A stretch of DNA of 45,073 nucleotides from an uncultured Dehalococcoidia bacterium (lineage in GTDB: Bacteria; Chloroflexota; Dehalococcoidia; Lucifugimonadales; Australimonadaceae): positions 1 to 45,073 of the forward strand of contig CAYMJY010000004.1 of NCBI GenBank assembly GCA_964391355.1, read 5' to 3'. Of this stretch, positions 1-35,875 are shown piece after piece. A model generated the notes under the pieces. That model was not told the DNA's origin. It saw only the letters and a program-made list of their open reading frames with translations, and did no database searches. Within the stretch, counting starts at the first letter, position 1, and each line of letters opens with the position of its first letter. A program made the position numbers and the translations under genes.

Positions 1-787
<787 letters not shown>

Positions 788-880
788 AGGATCCTAAGAT
801 CCTTTAGTGTTTGACCTAACTAAATATATAAAACTATCCGTCTCTCAAAGAGACGGGGCGCCTTCCTTTCACTATTCACT

Positions 881-892
881 TGTTAACGTGCA
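881..892 (-). promoter_or_regulatory. rrn boxA antitermination element
   Basis: TGCACGTTAACA on the - strand matches E. coli boxA TGCTCTTTAACA at 10/12, and lies between the promoter and the 16S 5' end. Confidence 0.7.
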
Positions 893-902
893 AAAAACAG
901 AT

Positions 903-919
903 GCCCCTCAAATGGGGGC
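903..919 (-). promoter_or_regulatory. boxB-like hairpin in rRNA leader
   Basis: GCCCC-N7-GGGGC stem-loop just downstream of the predicted -10 and upstream of boxA. Confidence 0.5.
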
Positions 920-925
920 TTAAGC

Positions 926-954
926 ACGATAGCCCATTTAAGGCTTTCAGTCAA
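926..954 (-). promoter_or_regulatory. sigma70-type rRNA promoter
   Basis: TTGACT (954-949), 17 nt spacer, TATCGT (931-926) on the - strand. Confidence 0.75.
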
Positions 955-963
955 CATCCGTAG

Positions 964-8684: not shown

Positions 8685-9818
8685 TTATGGTGCGACTACA
8701 GCGTCTACTTCTTCAATTAAAGCAGACATCATTTCTGAAGCTTCAACGACACGCACCTTTTTACCCTTTCGGAAAATTACAGCCCTGCCATTGCCAGCTG
8801 CTATACCTACATCTGCGTCTTTAGCTTCACCAGGTCCATTTACTTCGCAGCCCATAACAGCAACTTTGATTGGTGAGTCCTTACTTTTAAGTAATTGATC
8901 CACATCATTCGCTAATTTTCTAATATCAACGTCGGCTCTTCCACATGATGGGCATGCAACCATTTGTATGCCTTTCTTCCTCAAACCTAACGATTTTAAA
9001 ATTTCGTAGCCAACTTCAACTTCTTCTTTCGATTCATCGGCTAAAGAAACACGGATGGTGTCACCTAAGCCCTCATAAAGTAGAACCCCAAGTCCTATTG
9101 CACTTCTAATAGATCCACTACGAGCAGTTCCTGCTTCAGTAATGCCTAAATGTAATGGATATGGAACTAGGCGGGCGAGCTTCCTGTATGCTTCTACAGT
9201 TGTGTCCACATCAAAAGCTTTCATAGATATTTTTATTAGATCAAAATCTAAATCTTCCAAAATCCCGATTTCCCATAACGCGGTTGCGACCATATGGTCG
9301 ACCACAGAGATATCTTGACCGGAACCAGAAGCTTCTGCACCCTTCTCCAACTCGTTCACCCCATCATTATGTCGATGTTGCCCTCTGGTTTTTCCAATTG
9401 CTCCAACTGGTGGCAGTGAGCCGAAATTTACCCCGATTCGAATAGGCACATCTCTAGTTTTTGCTTCACGGACAATCTCTCGAACCTTATCAGCATCCCT
9501 AATATTTCCAGGGTTTAACCGGAGGCAATCCACCCCCTGGCGAAGAGATTCCAAAGCTAATTGGTGGTGAAAATGAATATCAGCTACTAACGGTATATGG
9601 ATAGATTTTTTAATCTCAGACAATGCATTTGCGGCCTCCATATCAGGAACAGCGCAACGGATTATTTCACAGCCCGCTTGCTCAAGCTCGAGTATCTGCG
9701 AAACAGTTGCCTTCACATCTCTAGTATCGGTTTTGGTCATTGATTGAACTGTTATTGGCGCGTCGCCCCCAACTTTAACGTTGCCAACATTTACTGCTTT
9801 GGTTACACGACGAGCCAT
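8685..9818 (-). CDS. ispG: (E)-4-hydroxy-3-methylbut-2-enyl-diphosphate synthase
   Basis: VQSMT, PLVADIHF, RLNPGNI, GDTIRVSL, CPSCGR and MGCEVNGPGE Fe-S ligands. Confidence 0.97.
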   Translation of the reverse strand: MARRVTKAVNVGNVKVGGDAPITVQSMTKTDTRDVKATVSQILELEQAGCEIIRCAVPDMEAANALSEIKKSIHIPLVADIHFHHQLALESLRQGVDCLRLNPGNIRDADKVREIVREAKTRDVPIRIGVNFGSLPPVGAIGKTRGQHRHNDGVNELEKGAEASGSGQDISVVDHMVATALWEIGILEDLDFDLIKISMKAFDVDTTVEAYRKLARLVPYPLHLGITEAGTARSGSIRSAIGLGVLLYEGLGDTIRVSLADESKEEVEVGYEILKSLGLRKKGIQMVACPSCGRADVDIRKLANDVDQLLKSKDSPIKVAVMGCEVNGPGEAKDADVGIAAGNGRAVIFRKGKKVRVVEASEMMSALIEEVDAVVAP

Positions 9819-15176: not shown

Positions 15177-15677
15177 TTACTCGCCAAGACCAAAGCGAGT
15201 AAATCGACTAATGCGAACATTCTCGCCGACCCTGGCTCGAACATCCATCACTAAATCATTGATGGTCTTTGAGGGATCCCGGATGAATGCCTGATTTAGC
15301 AAACATACCTCTTCTGGTTTACGTGTTTCATCTGCAGGTAATTCATTCTCTTCTACATACTCAGGAGCCATTGCGGCCACTTGCATCGCTAAATTATGTG
15401 CAAGTCCTTTGAATTCTTCAGTTCGGGCAACAAAATCAGTTTCACAATTCAATTCAACCATCGCGCCGATTCTATTACCAGTGTGTATATAAGACTCGAT
15501 AATGCCTTCAGCTGTTGCCCTATCTGACTTTGAGGCTGCTTTAGAAAGACCTTTTTCACGCAATGCCGATTCTGCTTTATCTATGTCACCACCAGCATCT
15601 TCTAATGCCCGTTTGGAGTCCATAATTCCAGCGCCGGTTCGCTCGCGCAAAGTTCTTATAAGATCTGTAGAAACCAC
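15177..15677 (-). CDS. tsf: elongation factor Ts (short form, about 166 aa)
   Basis: LRERTGAGIMDSKRAL, ELNCETDFVAR. The true start is probably the GTG at 15677, 1 nt after the rpsB stop. Confidence 0.95.
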   Translation of the reverse strand: MVSTDLIRTLRERTGAGIMDSKRALEDAGGDIDKAESALREKGLSKAASKSDRATAEGIIESYIHTGNRIGAMVELNCETDFVARTEEFKGLAHNLAMQVAAMAPEYVEENELPADETRKPEEVCLLNQAFIRDPSKTINDLVMDVRARVGENVRISRFTRFGLGE

Positions 15678-15678
15678 T

Positions 15679-16497
15679 CTATTCTTCCGCCTCTTCAGCA
15701 AATACCGGATCGGGCTCCCTATCGTTATGCCCTGCCTGACTGTATCCTCCACGATTCTCCAACCATTCAGCATGCCCCTCTAAAGCAGCAGAGGCTAGAT
15801 GGTTTGCGATTAATCGAATTGAACGAATAGCATCATCGTTACCTGGAATAGGCCAATCAATTTTTACGGGATCGCAATCAGTATCAACCAATGCCACAAC
15901 AGGAACACCAGCTCTTTGTGCTTCTGCGATAGCGATTTTTTCACGGCCGATATCAACAACAAACAAGGCGCCAGGGAGTTCGGTCATCTCTTTGAATCCA
16001 CCGAAATATCGATTCATTTTCTCTATTCGATTTTCTAAGCGTAAGGCTTCTTTCTTAGGTAAGTGAACAAATTCACCCCTGCTTTTTCTCTCTTCTTGTC
16101 TAACTAAGTAATCAATCCTAGTTTGAATCGTAGAAAAATTCGTAATTGTTCCACCTAGCCAGCGGTGGTTGATAAAGTATTGGCCTGACCGAATAGCTTC
16201 TTCCCTAATAGGATCCTGAGCTTGTTTTTTCGTACCCACCATCAGAACCCGTTTACCAGATGATGCGACCTCATAAATAAAGTCGCGAGCACTATTGAGA
16301 AGATCCATAGTCTGTTGCAAATCAACAATATGGATTCCGTTTCGCTCTGCGAAAATGTATCGCTTCATCCTTGGGTTCCAGCGATGTGTCTGGTGCCCGA
16401 AGTGGACACCTGCTTCGAGTAAAGCTTTCATGCTTAAAGCATCAACTTGTTCGTCTACAGCCGGATCCTCAAGGGCGGCCTCTGCCCCTTCTTCCAT
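15679..16497 (-). CDS. rpsB: 30S ribosomal protein S2
   Basis: [40 protein letters not shown]. Start at ATG 16497 (or 16512). Confidence 0.98.
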
Positions 16498-18493: not shown

Positions 18494-19015
18494 ATGACCA
18501 GCTACGACTACCGAAGTCTAATCAACGATTACGTCAATTTCCCCAAACAGGGCATTATTTTTCGAGATATCTCTCCCCTTCTGAGCCATCCAAAGGCATT
18601 CAAGTTAGCGATTAAAGAAATGTCAGACCCTTTTCGTGATTCAAGTATCGACCGAGTCATTAGTCTTGAATCTAGGGGTTTTATCATAGGTTCCCCCATT
18701 GCTCTGGAGCTCGGAGTTGGCTTTACTCCTATTCGCAAAGCAGGCAAACTCCCGGGCCATACACTCCAGGTTCCATACTCACTTGAATATGGGGAAGCCT
18801 CACTTGAATTACAGTCCGATGTACTAAAACCCAATCAAAATGTTTTATTAGTTGACGATGTGCTTGCAACTGGTGGAACTCTCGAAGCCGCAATCAGATT
18901 GATCAAAAATTGCGGAGCCCAAATTGCAGGTGTTGCTATAATTTTAGAGCTAAAAGATTTATGCGGACGCGATAAGTTATCAGGGTATGAAGTGACAACG
19001 CTAATACAAATTTAA
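18494..19015 (+). CDS. apt: adenine phosphoribosyltransferase
   Basis: FPKQGIIFRDISPLL, ESRGF, RKAGKLP, YSLEYG, VDDVLATGGT. Confidence 0.97.
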   Translation: MTSYDYRSLINDYVNFPKQGIIFRDISPLLSHPKAFKLAIKEMSDPFRDSSIDRVISLESRGFIIGSPIALELGVGFTPIRKAGKLPGHTLQVPYSLEYGEASLELQSDVLKPNQNVLLVDDVLATGGTLEAAIRLIKNCGAQIAGVAIILELKDLCGRDKLSGYEVTTLIQI

Positions 19016-32729: not shown

Positions 32730-33497
32730 TTGAAAACTCAAGCGATCGTACTACGTTCGTTTGAAGACGGCGAGGCAGATAGAACTATATTTATTCTGAC
32801 ACCGGAAATAGGCAAGATAAAGGTTAAGGTCCGTGGAGCGCGAAGGATTAATAGTAGATTGGGTGGGCACACCGATCTGCTCAATCTTGTTCTATTAAAT
32901 ATATCCATTGGAAAGCGATCAAACATCGTAACTTCAGCTGACTCAATAAACAGCTTTATCAACCTCAAGTCTGATCTCGAACGTTTAGCAGTTGCTATAT
33001 ACCTAGCAGAGCTTATCAACTCACTAGTTCCTGAAGAAATACCGCACATCGGGGTTTATCATATATTTCGACGATCTCTAGAAGAGCTTAACAAAAACCA
33101 AGATCCTCAAATTATTTCTAGATACTTAGAATTGAAAATATTATCCGAAACCGGTTATTCACAAGAACTTTATAATTGTGTTTTATGCAGGAGCGAGATA
33201 CTCCCCAATCAGCATTCATATAATCCTTCTTTGGGAGGAGTTATATGCTTAAATTGCCCCGTAAACCCAAGCCAATCGCTTCCGCTATCACTAAACTCTC
33301 TTAAAGTACTTCGGTATTTTGACCGCTCTGAACTCAATCACACGCTCAGTATAAATTTAGATAGGCAGGTCCAATCTGAGTTGGAGAAAGTATTAAATCA
33401 GAGTATTTCATGGATTATAGACAAACAAAGCAAAGCTCGTAAGTTTGTAGAACATTTGCAGACCATCCGGGAGAATAACTCTGAAGTTATTTCATAG
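32730..33497 (+). CDS. recO: DNA repair protein RecO
   Basis: KTQAIVLR, EADR, GKI..KVRGARR, CVLC and CLNC zinc ligands. Confidence 0.93.
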   Translation: MKTQAIVLRSFEDGEADRTIFILTPEIGKIKVKVRGARRINSRLGGHTDLLNLVLLNISIGKRSNIVTSADSINSFINLKSDLERLAVAIYLAELINSLVPEEIPHIGVYHIFRRSLEELNKNQDPQIISRYLELKILSETGYSQELYNCVLCRSEILPNQHSYNPSLGGVICLNCPVNPSQSLPLSLNSLKVLRYFDRSELNHTLSINLDRQVQSELEKVLNQSISWIIDKQSKARKFVEHLQTIRENNSEVIS

Positions 33498-34052
33498 TTT
33501 CTCCGATATAGCTTCGGCTAATTCTAAGTGAACTGTTCGATTAATACGGTCAACGGTCATCTCTAACTCAACTGCCACAACTAATCGTCCATTTAAAAAT
33601 GTGACAATACTTGGAGGCTCGATAAAACCAGAAAGTCCTTCACCTGAAAGAACACCATAATAGGAGCGATCCCCAATTTTAGAGTTTGTTATTGTCAAAT
33701 TTTCGCTCAATACAAAATCGTTCAATGTTTCTCTCGCATGTCGGTCAGTGAAAAATTGGAAAATATACAAACCGAGAGGAGAGTCCTCTTGGTCATCTAA
33801 ATACAAGGCAATATATTGGTTTTCCATTCCATAAACACCAGCAAAAACATGGTGTTTGATCGCATCATCCGCCTTAGATTTGTCAAAAACCTCTCTTTTA
33901 CTTAAAACTACTCCCAAAGACTCAGAAGCCTCTTGTAGTGATAATAAATCTGGAAATGTTTTTTGGTTTAGAGGCTCAGTTGAACAAGCTATTACCGAAA
34001 ATATAAAAACCCAAAACAATAATACATATCGAAGCTTAGAGAAAGTCACCAT
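33492..34052 (-). CDS. hypothetical lipoprotein
   Basis: Basic N-terminus and hydrophobic stretch ending in a VIAC lipobox-like Cys; no recognisable family. Confidence 0.65.
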   Translation of the reverse strand: MVTFSKLRYVLLFWVFIFSVIACSTEPLNQKTFPDLLSLQEASESLGVVLSKREVFDKSKADDAIKHHVFAGVYGMENQYIALYLDDQEDSPLGLYIFQFFTDRHARETLNDFVLSENLTITNSKIGDRSYYGVLSGEGLSGFIEPPSIVTFLNGRLVVAVELEMTVDRINRTVHLELAEAISEKL

Positions 34053-34097
34053 AATGCAACATCGGGTTTTCCAAATTTCAAACTCTGCACCACTCCC

Positions 34098-34502
34098 CTA
34101 AACTGTATCCGAGACGATCAATGGAGCTTCAGAAATTTCACCATCTACAATCCAAAAATTTCGAATTTGGGGGTTTTCTTTGTCCATCAAAGAAATAAGC
34201 ATGTACTCGGCATCTGGCCAAGTAGCCAATCGAACATCTGTGGAAGATGGGAAAGCAGGTGTATGTGTATGAGAATGGTAAATGGCACCTAATTCCCATC
34301 CGTTATCTTCTATTTCGTTATAAGCATTCAGAACCTGTTTGCCGTCCATACTATACCGATAAGGACTTTGCTCCACATTTGTAATGGGGTAAAGCTTTAC
34401 TGCAACTCCTTCTCTTGAACCCAAGATTCCACAACATTCGTTTGGCATTTCACTAATCGCATGCCTGATTAGGTCATCTTTAATTGATTTCGATATTTGC
34501 AT
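34098..34502 (-). CDS. M67/JAMM (Mov34) metallopeptidase, Mec-like
   Basis: PNECCGIL and the YHSH-x-x-x-x-x-PS-x-x-D JAMM zinc motif. Confidence 0.92.
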   Translation of the reverse strand: MQISKSIKDDLIRHAISEMPNECCGILGSREGVAVKLYPITNVEQSPYRYSMDGKQVLNAYNEIEDNGWELGAIYHSHTHTPAFPSSTDVRLATWPDAEYMLISLMDKENPQIRNFWIVDGEISEAPLIVSDTV

Positions 34503-34526
34503 ACTATATTTCCCTGATTTCTTGTA

Positions 34527-35567
34527 TTACCTATCAACGATAATTGGAAATTCCAAAGAGTCGCTAACACTGCCAATCACCTTGTTGAATACGCCTTTTG
34601 CCTTAAGTGCGCTTAAAAACAACGTTAATTTTGCAGTTGGTATTGAAATAAGTAATCCACCAGAAGTTTGGGCATCACATAGCAATAATTTATCAGAATC
34701 TGAAATCTTTGAACCCCAGCCTACTTTTTGACCCAAAGTCTCTAAGTTAGTAATAGTTCCACCTGGAACTACTCCTTGATTTAATAGATCTCGCGTACCC
34801 TCTAGCTCAGGAATGAAATTAGCATTGACTAATGCAGTTGTTCCGCTGCTCTCCATCATTCTATGCAGATGGCCAACTAGACCAAATCCCGTTACATCTG
34901 TAGCCGAACTAACACCAGCTGAATTCATTACTTCAGATGCCTCACGATTTAAAATGCGCATAACCTTAACGGCATTGTCTAAGACTTCTGGTGACACTAT
35001 TTGATTTTTAGCTGCAGTCGAAATAATACCAGTGCCCAAGGGCTTTGTGAGCACCAAAGAATCCCCGGGCTTAGCCCCTACATTCTTAACCAAATTCTTG
35101 GGATCGACTGTGCCAGTAACCGCCATTCCATACTTGGGTTCCTTGTCTTTGATTGTGTGTCCGCCCGCCACAAGCATTCCAGCGTCTCGAGCAACTTCTG
35201 AGCCACCTTCCAGTATTCGAGCTAAGATAGAAATCGGCTGGTCTTCTGGAAAACACACAATATTTAAAGCCAGTACTGGTTTTCCTCCCATAGCGTACAC
35301 ATCACTAATCGCGTTAGTTGCCGAAATAGCTCCAAATTCAAAAGGGTCATCTACTATAGGTGGGAAAAAATCGACAGTTTGGATGATTGCAAGATTATCA
35401 GCAAGGCGATACACGGCAGCATCATCACCGGTCTCTATACCTACTAATAGCTCTGGGTGGCTGATATGAGGTATGTGCTTTAGCACTTCACCGAGAACCT
35501 CGGCGTTAAATTTTCCTGCTCAGCCCGCGCATGTTGCCAGACTTGTTAACCGAGTCACATTCTCCAT
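34527..35567 (-). CDS. selD: selenide, water dikinase (selenophosphate synthetase), selenocysteine-containing (U16)
   Basis: MENVTRLTSLATCAG-TGA-AGK from the ATG at 35567 is in frame with the track ORF (DDAAVY, TVDFFPP, NAISDVYAMGG, GGHT, TDVTGFGL, DAQTSGGLL). Confidence 0.95.
35489..35505 (-). promoter_or_regulatory. bacterial SECIS-like hairpin
   Basis: CGCCGAG-GTT-CTCGGTG stem-loop begins 14 nt 3' of the UGA (35522-35520), with a G-rich apical loop. Confidence 0.75.
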
Positions 35568-35632
35568 GGCATAAGTATATAGGTGATTTCATGTAACAGC
35601 GAGCATTATACTTAGTGTATAAGGAGGATGTC

Positions 35633-35875
35633 ATGGCTAATGGAATTGTGCTTAAGAGTAGTAAAGAAGGAGATCGGCTTGAAATAGGTTGTACACACCA
35701 AAATGGGTTATTGTACGTTGTTCCATCAGCTGCTAATTGGGTTTGTGACAAAAAAACTGTACCCGCGCATGCCCTTGCGGGGTTCCTTAGGGATGTATTC
35801 GAACTAAACCTATCTTCTGTTCAGGAAATAGCTCAAAAATGGGGTATTTATTATCGCGAAAGGCCACTAGATTAG
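35633..35875 (+). CDS. small hypothetical protein (80 aa) with Cys/His residues
   Basis: Perfect SD AAGGAGG (35621-35627) before the ATG at 35633; protein-like composition; fills the gap between selD and ftsH. Confidence 0.75.
   Translation: MANGIVLKSSKEGDRLEIGCTHQNGLLYVVPSAANWVCDKKTVPAHALAGFLRDVFELNLSSVQEIAQKWGIYYRERPLD

Follow-up and report, generated by a model that had tools for sequence, protein, structure and literature searches.

What does a JAMM-family peptidase do beside a selenophosphate synthetase? The question is raised by a 45,073-nucleotide (nt) stretch of DNA from an uncultured Dehalococcoidia bacterium (GenBank assembly GCA_964391355.1, contig CAYMJY010000004.1, positions 1 to 45,073; "the window" below always means this whole stretch), in which selD, with a selenocysteine (Sec) codon in its own reading frame, is followed by genes for a Mec-like zinc peptidase and for a predicted lipoprotein. 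A first-pass annotation had put the three genes forward as a candidate selenium-handling operon, in which the peptidase may process a ubiquitin-like carrier loaded with selenium. The gene pairing at the heart of that proposal proved to be conserved, but we found nothing beyond adjacency to give the peptidase a role in selenium metabolism. The locus is probably an inherited operon of two ordinary enzymes, together with a passenger lipoprotein, in a marine Dehalococcoidia lineage; by analogy with characterised systems, the JAMM protein is most likely an ordinary Mec-type peptidase, maturing or recycling a CysO/MoaD-like sulfur carrier encoded elsewhere. The three genes are:

34527..35567, minus strand: selD, selenide, water dikinase (selenophosphate synthetase); 346 codons, of which one is an in-frame UGA for Sec; TIGR00476, Pfam AIRS and AIRS_C.
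34098..34502, minus strand: mec-like JAMM/MPN zinc peptidase, 134 aa; Pfam Prok-JAB, 67 bits.
33492..34052, minus strand: predicted lipoprotein, 186 aa; signal peptide and lipobox V-I-A-C23, read by eye; its last 6 nt are shared with the convergent recO.

The peptidase is a stand-alone MPN domain with a complete E...HxH...S..D motif, its residues E22, H76, H78, S86 and D89 being unchanged throughout 43 homologues. A homologue search found 1845 proteins, the best of which (53-82% identical, from Dehalococcoidia/Chloroflexota) carry the name M67 family metallopeptidase, and one homologue at 58% identity is annotated by JGI as "[CysO sulfur-carrier protein]-S-L-cysteine hydrolase". The closest solved structures are the structural-genomics MPN proteins 2KKS and 2KCQ and the archaeal PfJAMM1 (5LD9/5LDA, E 4e-14), while the best NCBIfam match, the haloarchaeal desampylase NF041370, is reached with 75.7 bits, under the cut-off of 130 for membership.

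The neighbourhoods of JAMM orthologues point to the kind of substrate involved. They were sampled from GTDB (one genome per species, the best 80 JAMM loci, 47-63% identity), a "best 80" choice that, as in the SelD sample described below, biases toward close relatives. Genes in the related loci were called with a heuristic of our own (a codon-usage log-likelihood caller with the JAMM gene forced), longest-ORF (open reading frame) calling being unsuited to high-GC loci, where spurious antisense ORFs masked 27 of the 80 JAMM genes. About 35 of the loci have the context ftsH-orf86(-)-[selD]-JAMM-recO(-), 12 have nth-like(-)/JAMM/lysA-like/holB-like, 15 have a zinc-protease-like gene(-)/JAMM/large lipoprotein, and the remainder are varied. 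The first-pass annotation had, in effect, named its own counter-evidence, namely JAMM orthologues flanked by moaD or cysM, and these do occur: L037 shows the classical Mec context (moeZ-cysO-cysM-rhodanese-x-JAMM), in L066 (moeZ..cysO-cysM-JAMM) the cysM and JAMM genes overlap by 4 nt, and L073 has JAMM-moeZ-cysO with cysM 5 kb beyond. The three proteins are 47-57% identical to that of the window, and those of L037 and L066, whose loci lack selD, belong to the same orthologue group.

The carriers found beside JAMM orthologues (L037 237-515, L073 11239-11517, L066 ~8786-9064 and L026 ~18545-18856) belong to the MoaD/SAMP1 family, with 56.7 bits for TIGR01687 (cut-off 49.5) and 57-60.7 bits for the SAMP1 model (cut-off 60). 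All four end in a Gly-Gly pair followed by one or two residues (GG+A, GG+C, GG+FE and GG+A), and because of these extra residues a trimming peptidase is required, which makes trimming by the JAMM protein plausible. The L026 carrier additionally has a tandem duplication of its C-terminal ...LPAIAGGA segment. The activating enzyme (E1) near the JAMM orthologues is MoeB/MoeZ-like, with a rhodanese domain, and the cysO-linked synthase falls in the cysKM subfamily, under the CysK cut-off. A profile search with the four CysO-like carriers gave no contig in common with the selD-mec loci among the 120 matches listed of about 8000.

These neighbourhoods also indicate how loosely the peptidase is tied to selD, which is absent within 10 kb in 65 of the 80 JAMM loci. 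In about 28 of these 65 loci orf86 is directly divergent from the JAMM gene, in the window's own ftsH/recO slot, and selD is patchily distributed over a tree of the adjacent FtsH, which implies that it was removed from that slot three times or more. In the JAMM tree (like the others a neighbour-joining tree with no support values, and one built on a short protein) the selD-linked proteins form no separate subfamily, being interspersed with unlinked and cysO/cysM-linked ones. Both genes may also survive apart: the L041 chromosome (2,381,319 bp) keeps the JAMM gene in an orf86-JAMM-recO slot and selD in a senC-senA-senB cluster (SenA 475 bits, SenB 340 bits), the L065 contig has JAMM-lysA and, about 900 kb off, a cysK-like gene, a BNR gene and selD, and contig 3,494,098 carries its JAMM gene (P0063) and a sen-linked selD apart. 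A reading of the selD-less slot as loss of selenium use was rejected, since some such genomes keep selD elsewhere, in sen clusters, and we now speak of loss or relocation.

The pairing of selD with the JAMM gene is nevertheless far from unique to the window; confinement to this genome was one of the outcomes that the first-pass annotation had said would speak against its proposal. The two genes are adjacent in 13 of the 80 species-level GTDB JAMM loci; in a SelD-centred metagenome sample (the best 80 loci, 42-65% identity, 62 of them informative) a JAMM gene lies downstream of selD in 8 of the 62, and in the SelD clade holding the window it does so in 21 of 24 informative loci. Within this clade the flanks vary, with at least five different upstream neighbours (orf86, ftsH, cysK, a HesB-like gene and others) and at least seven downstream (lipoprotein, PDZ protein, recO, dnaK, a deacetylase-like gene, an F420-type oxidoreductase and others); two further loci read ftsH-(orf85)-selD-JAMM-PDZ-...-recO. 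As judged from these loci, the pairing is inherited within one marine Dehalococcoidia group and is not a one-genome accident. The junction is sticky but dispensable. In L012 the two genes are adjacent but head-to-head (3-392, minus strand; 572-955, plus strand), which makes co-transcription impossible, on a 2.2-kb contig where an assembly error is possible.

The selD gene itself is an ordinary member of its family. With U read as C, its product is a full-length equivalog of TIGR00476 (385.6 bits, cut-off 125) and scores 362 bits for NF002098 (cut-off 299). Its N-terminal translation runs MENVTRLTSLATCAG-UGA-AGKFNAE..., and the loop CAG-U-AGK falls, in alignment with canonical SelD, on the Cys17/Lys20 loop, with both the catalytic Sec/Cys position and the conserved Lys present. 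A UGA stands at the identical codon in every Chloroflexota-type relative examined, within a CAG-U-A[GAS]K loop, while Cys replaces Sec in the SelD of the actinomycete metagenome-assembled genome (MAG) L073, of gut lineages and of other lineages (GAGCGCK in L073 and the gut lineages). This conservation argues that the selenocysteine codon is real, and its decoding would be assisted by a hairpin close by on its 3' side, for which a candidate resembling a selenocysteine insertion sequence (SECIS) was found:

35520..35522, minus strand: UGA selenocysteine codon of selD, a single in-frame stop inside a conserved reading frame.
35489..35505, minus strand: SECIS-like hairpin of selD, CGCCGAG-GUU-CUCGGUG, starting 15 nt past the UGA; 7-bp stem in the minimum-free-energy and centroid folds.

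The selD genes of relatives have a common 8-bp hairpin with a 3-nt loop, 20 nt past the UGA, in which compensatory substitutions are seen at five pairs; among them, a synonymous change of a Leu codon co-varies with an E/Q replacement. In the window and in its nearest relative, L001, two mismatched pairs, G.G and U.U, disrupt this consensus helix, whose place is taken by a shifted-register 7-bp hairpin a few nt upstream. Since the window's own fold is no better than those of shuffled sequences (z = -0.5), support for the hairpin comes mainly from the relatives. No SECIS family, riboswitch or tRNA-Sec was matched by Rfam in the window, the sole Rfam match being the partial 16S rRNA.

The three genes form one co-oriented minus-strand run, bounded by recO (32730-33497, plus strand, convergent) and by the divergent orf86, which precedes ftsH. 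The gaps of 24 nt between selD and the JAMM gene (34526-34503) and of 45 nt between the JAMM and lipoprotein genes (34097-34053) agree with the first-pass annotation, as do the family matches, and a sequence scan likewise found no terminator-like hairpin or site between the three genes. The Shine-Dalgarno sequence that it placed ahead of the JAMM gene is there, as an AGGGA 8 nt before the ATG, but it is only weakly Shine-Dalgarno-like; nothing comparable precedes the lipoprotein ATG. Upstream of selD, the region contains two further elements, of which the promoter candidate ends 38 nt before the selD ATG:

35605..35634, minus strand: sigma-70-like promoter candidate for selD, ATGACA-18-TATAAT, 11/12 consensus and the best site in the region, as a consensus match only.
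35615..35875, plus strand: orf86, conserved divergent neighbour, 86 codons; a context gene.

With this layout, selD, the JAMM gene and the lipoprotein gene would be co-transcribed. The lipoprotein, with the N-terminus MVTFSKLRYVLLFWVFIFS-VIAC23, has a lipobox of the form [LVI][ASTVI][GAS]C (LIAAC in its L007 homologue) and matches no Pfam or NCBIfam family. Although present here as the first-pass annotation had it, it lies outside any conserved module, because its homologues (28-31% identity) are confined to the nearest loci, in several of which a PDZ gene intervenes between the JAMM and lipoprotein genes. It is a lineage-specific passenger.

Neither a sulfur carrier nor a cysteine synthase accompanies the three genes, again as first noted: Pfam scans of all ORFs of at least 70 aa, tblastn with the CysO, CysM and MoeZ of relatives, and a search for small ORFs ending in GG(x0-3) found no ThiS/MoaD, MoeB/MoeZ or CysK/CysM in the 45-kb window. 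Other sel genes (selA, selB, tRNA-Sec) are also absent from it; these, like cysO, cysM and moeZ, are predicted to lie elsewhere in the genome.

The explanation that we favour brings these elements together as follows. SelD would make selenophosphate for selenium-dependent pathways, among which the use of selenocysteine is certain, because selD itself needs Sec, and others are possible. The JAMM protein would be a Mec-type zinc peptidase of a sulfur-carrier (CysO/MoaD/SAMP-like) system, by analogy with Mec+, QbsD and HcyD, that trims the one or two residues past the carrier's C-terminal Gly-Gly and hydrolyses the adduct of carrier and cysteine that a CysM-type synthase produces, with its carrier, E1 (moeZ) and cysM situated elsewhere in this genome. 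In an ancestor, selD would have come between the JAMM gene and the latter's divergent promoter region, on the orf86 side. We infer that the JAMM gene was then left without a promoter of its own, because the 24-nt gap leaves no room for one, and would depend on that of selD, such that rearrangements splitting the pair would silence it; a dependence of this kind can alone explain a junction that outlives its flanks. A clean removal of selD, on the other hand, would restore the orf86-JAMM arrangement, as in many genomes. Even with such a dependence, selD has repeatedly been lost from the pair or moved elsewhere.

Several observations weigh against this explanation. The selD-JAMM junction is better kept than either flank across a deep SelD clade (SelD ~55-65% identical), a pattern that comparative genomics usually takes as a sign of functional coupling. 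In L022, L077 and L097 the gene immediately before selD encodes a CysK equivalog (372-381 bits, cut-off 351), and cysK is close to selD in L080, L102, L122 and L168, so that selD is found repeatedly among sulfur amino-acid genes. In a low-GC (31%) lineage, selD and the JAMM gene are 2-60 nt apart (L116 6001-7471, L120 6001-7468) and the SelD groups with SelDs lacking a JAMM neighbour; the pairing there is either ancestral and retained or arose a second time. In the actinomycete L073, a Cys-type SelD of another SelD clade is encoded two genes upstream of JAMM-moeZ-cysO. The explanation also depends on cysO, cysM and moeZ genes that are predicted for this organism, and on a co-transcription that is likewise predicted: six short contigs from marine metatranscriptomes match within selD and the JAMM gene (95-99% identity), none of them reaching across a junction.

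Some of these loci have peculiarities of their own. In L073 (7651-9957) no stop codon separates the selD ORF from a DoxX-like membrane segment, through either fusion or frameshift, and a small Rieske-like ORF precedes the JAMM gene; in L080 (5155-6303) a Fic-motif gene is inserted between cysK and selD; and in L102 (4963-5870) cysK is split across three reading frames, by pseudogenisation or sequencing errors. The label "cysM" for the synthase upstream of selD was rejected, NCBIfam making it CysK-type, at ~38% identity to the cysO-linked CysM-type group.

The kept junction, the recurrent cysK-selD order and the independent-looking co-locations in L073 and L116/L120 would all be accommodated if cysK-selD-mec (here selD-mec) were a co-regulated module for sulfur and selenium assimilation, with the JAMM protein still acting on sulfur carriers. 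Possible reasons for such a module are that free selenide is kept from cysteine synthases, or that free Sec made by CysK feeds SelD through a lyase; Lacourciere and Stadtman reportedly proposed that free Sec from CysK and NifS-like lyases supplies SelD in E. coli. We consider this explanation unlikely, though worth keeping in view, since cysK is found neither in the window nor anywhere in the ftsH/recO group, the sampled neighbourhoods show no Sec lyase and no NifS-like gene, many genomes retain both genes but no longer as a pair, and the association is essentially confined to one class.

Much more doubtful is the proposal from which we started, that the JAMM protein processes a ubiquitin-like carrier loaded with selenium (as a selenocarboxylate or a carrier-Sec adduct) and fed by SelD. 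Conserved adjacency and the cysK-selD-JAMM order are what it has in its favour, together with the fact that, in the literature searched, it is undescribed rather than disproved. The window, however, has no carrier, E1 or CysM for such a route, the orthologues in L037 and L066 serve cysO/cysM/moeZ loci devoid of selD, the peptidase persists where selD is gone or relocated, and the selD-linked proteins are no distinct subfamily. We also know of no case in which selenophosphate acts as a donor to acyl-adenylates. The broader version, in which (cysK-)selD-mec is a dedicated selenium-trafficking route, with a CysO/MoaD-like carrier or a cysteine-synthase product holding selenium as a protected adduct from which the JAMM protein releases it, supplying SelD or using selenophosphate, seems to us very improbable as well.

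A shared end product, with the JAMM protein maturing a MoaD-type carrier for molybdopterin and SelD supplying Sec, both for a Sec- and Mo/W-containing formate dehydrogenase or similar enzyme, deserves hardly any credence: the carriers do score as MoaD family besides SAMP1, their homologues are named "molybdopterin synthase sulfur carrier subunit" in source databases and an Oxidored_molyb gene follows selD in L171, but the informative contexts show cysteine synthase and not moaE/moaA, and neither the window nor the sampled selD-JAMM loci contain molybdenum cofactor (Moco) or fdh genes. Just as improbable is a protein that is chiefly the deconjugase of a bacterial SAMP/TtuB-like conjugation system and may regulate its targets, conceivably SelD, for while the desampylase match, the nearness to PfJAMM1 (the nearest characterised structure, with SAMP2), carriers that reach the SAMP1 model and an E1 resembling UbaA/MoeZ fit it, the desampylase score falls short of its cut-off, the tight cysM overlap in L066 points to a biosynthetic role and conjugation targets are not inferable from sequence.

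The Mec+ (Rv1334)/CysO/CysM/MoeZ system of M. tuberculosis shares with the window a stand-alone JAMM/MPN protein of ~130-150 aa with intact E/HxH/S/D, and the window's orthologues occur in moeZ-cysO-cysM-JAMM clusters; the JAMM gene of the window, by contrast, adjoins selD and a lipoprotein gene, with no carrier, E1 or CysM within 45 kb, and mycobacterial selD adjoins selC/selA/selB and not mec. CysO of M. tuberculosis ends in GG, whereas the Chloroflexota carriers end in GG plus one or two residues and would need an extra trimming step. That step would resemble QbsD/QbsE (thioquinolobactin) and HcyD/HcyS (the Wolinella methionine pathway): QbsD and HcyD are JAMM peptidases trimming the residues after the carrier's GG, which is what the GG-A, GG-C and GG-FE carriers call for, although no genes of such siderophore or homocysteine pathways were seen here. 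From the archaeal desampylases HvJAMM1 and PfJAMM1, which deconjugate SAMPs and share the fold family, the peptidase differs in its score, its bacterial host and the biosynthetic (cysM) context of its orthologues. As for SelD, the window's enzyme resembles those of E. coli and H. influenzae in being a full-length equivalog with Sec for Cys17, with Lys20 kept and with a SECIS-type hairpin past the UGA, but it has the loop C-A-G-U-A-G-K, not G-A-G-U/C-G-C-K, and its gene adjoins a JAMM peptidase gene instead of the canonical neighbours selA/selB/selC, selU, yedF or DUF3343.

The closest SelD relatives outside JAMM-linked loci are encoded by genes in the senC position of selenoneine clusters (senC-senA-senB; Kayrouz et al., bioRxiv 10.1101/2022.04.13.486033) in Dehalococcoidia. 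The selD-overlap survey behind that cluster gives, in its main text, selA, TIGR04348 (senB), selU, yedF and DUF3343 as the top overlapping genes. In Dehalococcoidia these clusters have a Sec-type selD as senC (L167 7001-10253, L169 7001-10259, L170 4001-7394), with 475 bits for SenA and 340-385 bits for SenB, and are followed 3', in L167 and L169 and partly visibly in L170, by an ABC transporter with a phosphonate-binding-type protein, a LysR regulator and an EgtD-like methyltransferase (Methyltransf_33). A tight subclade accounts for 54 of the 120 closest SelD clusters, its sampled members being sen-linked, and a second small subclade is sen-linked too. The window differs in having a JAMM gene after selD and no senA or senB, with no FGE-sulfatase or TIGR04348 gene found in it. 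In the literature searched, no paper joins selenophosphate synthetase with a JAMM protein, or selD with CysO in a biological sense, selenocarboxylates appear in synthetic chemistry only, and the main texts of the comparative selenium surveys do not name JAMM/Mov34/MPN, MoaD or cysteine synthase. Protein-carrier selenium transfer, of which the first-pass annotation knew no description, has none in that literature either; the selD-mec neighbourhood, too, seems to be undescribed there, as a new arrangement of known parts.

The remaining genes of the window are mostly housekeeping ones. It starts (1-787, minus strand) inside a bacterial 16S rRNA gene (RF00177, 785 bits, model positions 1-803 of 1533), and further includes tmk, pdxS/T, proS, ispG, rseP, dxr, cdsA, uppS, frr, pyrH, tsf, rpsB, dnaX, ybaB, recR, tag, recO, ftsH, greA, pyrD, nusA and others. 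The short EF-Ts gene tsf (15177-15773, minus strand) is flanked by rpsB and pyrH; the longest ORF of the gene extends into rpsB, and the true start is probably well 3' of the first ATG. The neighbour orf86 matches no Pfam or NCBIfam family and is divergent from JAMM or selD-JAMM in about 28 of the 80 GTDB loci, plus L001-L009 and L173. Its relatives have 80-96 aa and usually lie beside ftsH (e.g. L007 8598-8834, L173 3572-3829), and it could be a small regulator of the JAMM or selD-JAMM promoter region.

If the explanation by two ordinary enzymes is true, the JAMM gene would have to be annotated as a Mec-type sulfur-carrier peptidase and not as a selenium enzyme, and Dehalococcoidia would have at least three types of selD neighbourhood (selD-mec, cysK-selD and senC-senA-senB), which help to read selenium use in the abundant Chloroflexota of the deep ocean. 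It would also mean that conserved adjacency alone can outlast any functional tie. What keeps its interest as a gene-neighbourhood signal is the survival of the selD-JAMM junction through the turnover of its flanks, together with the recurrent cysK-selD order.

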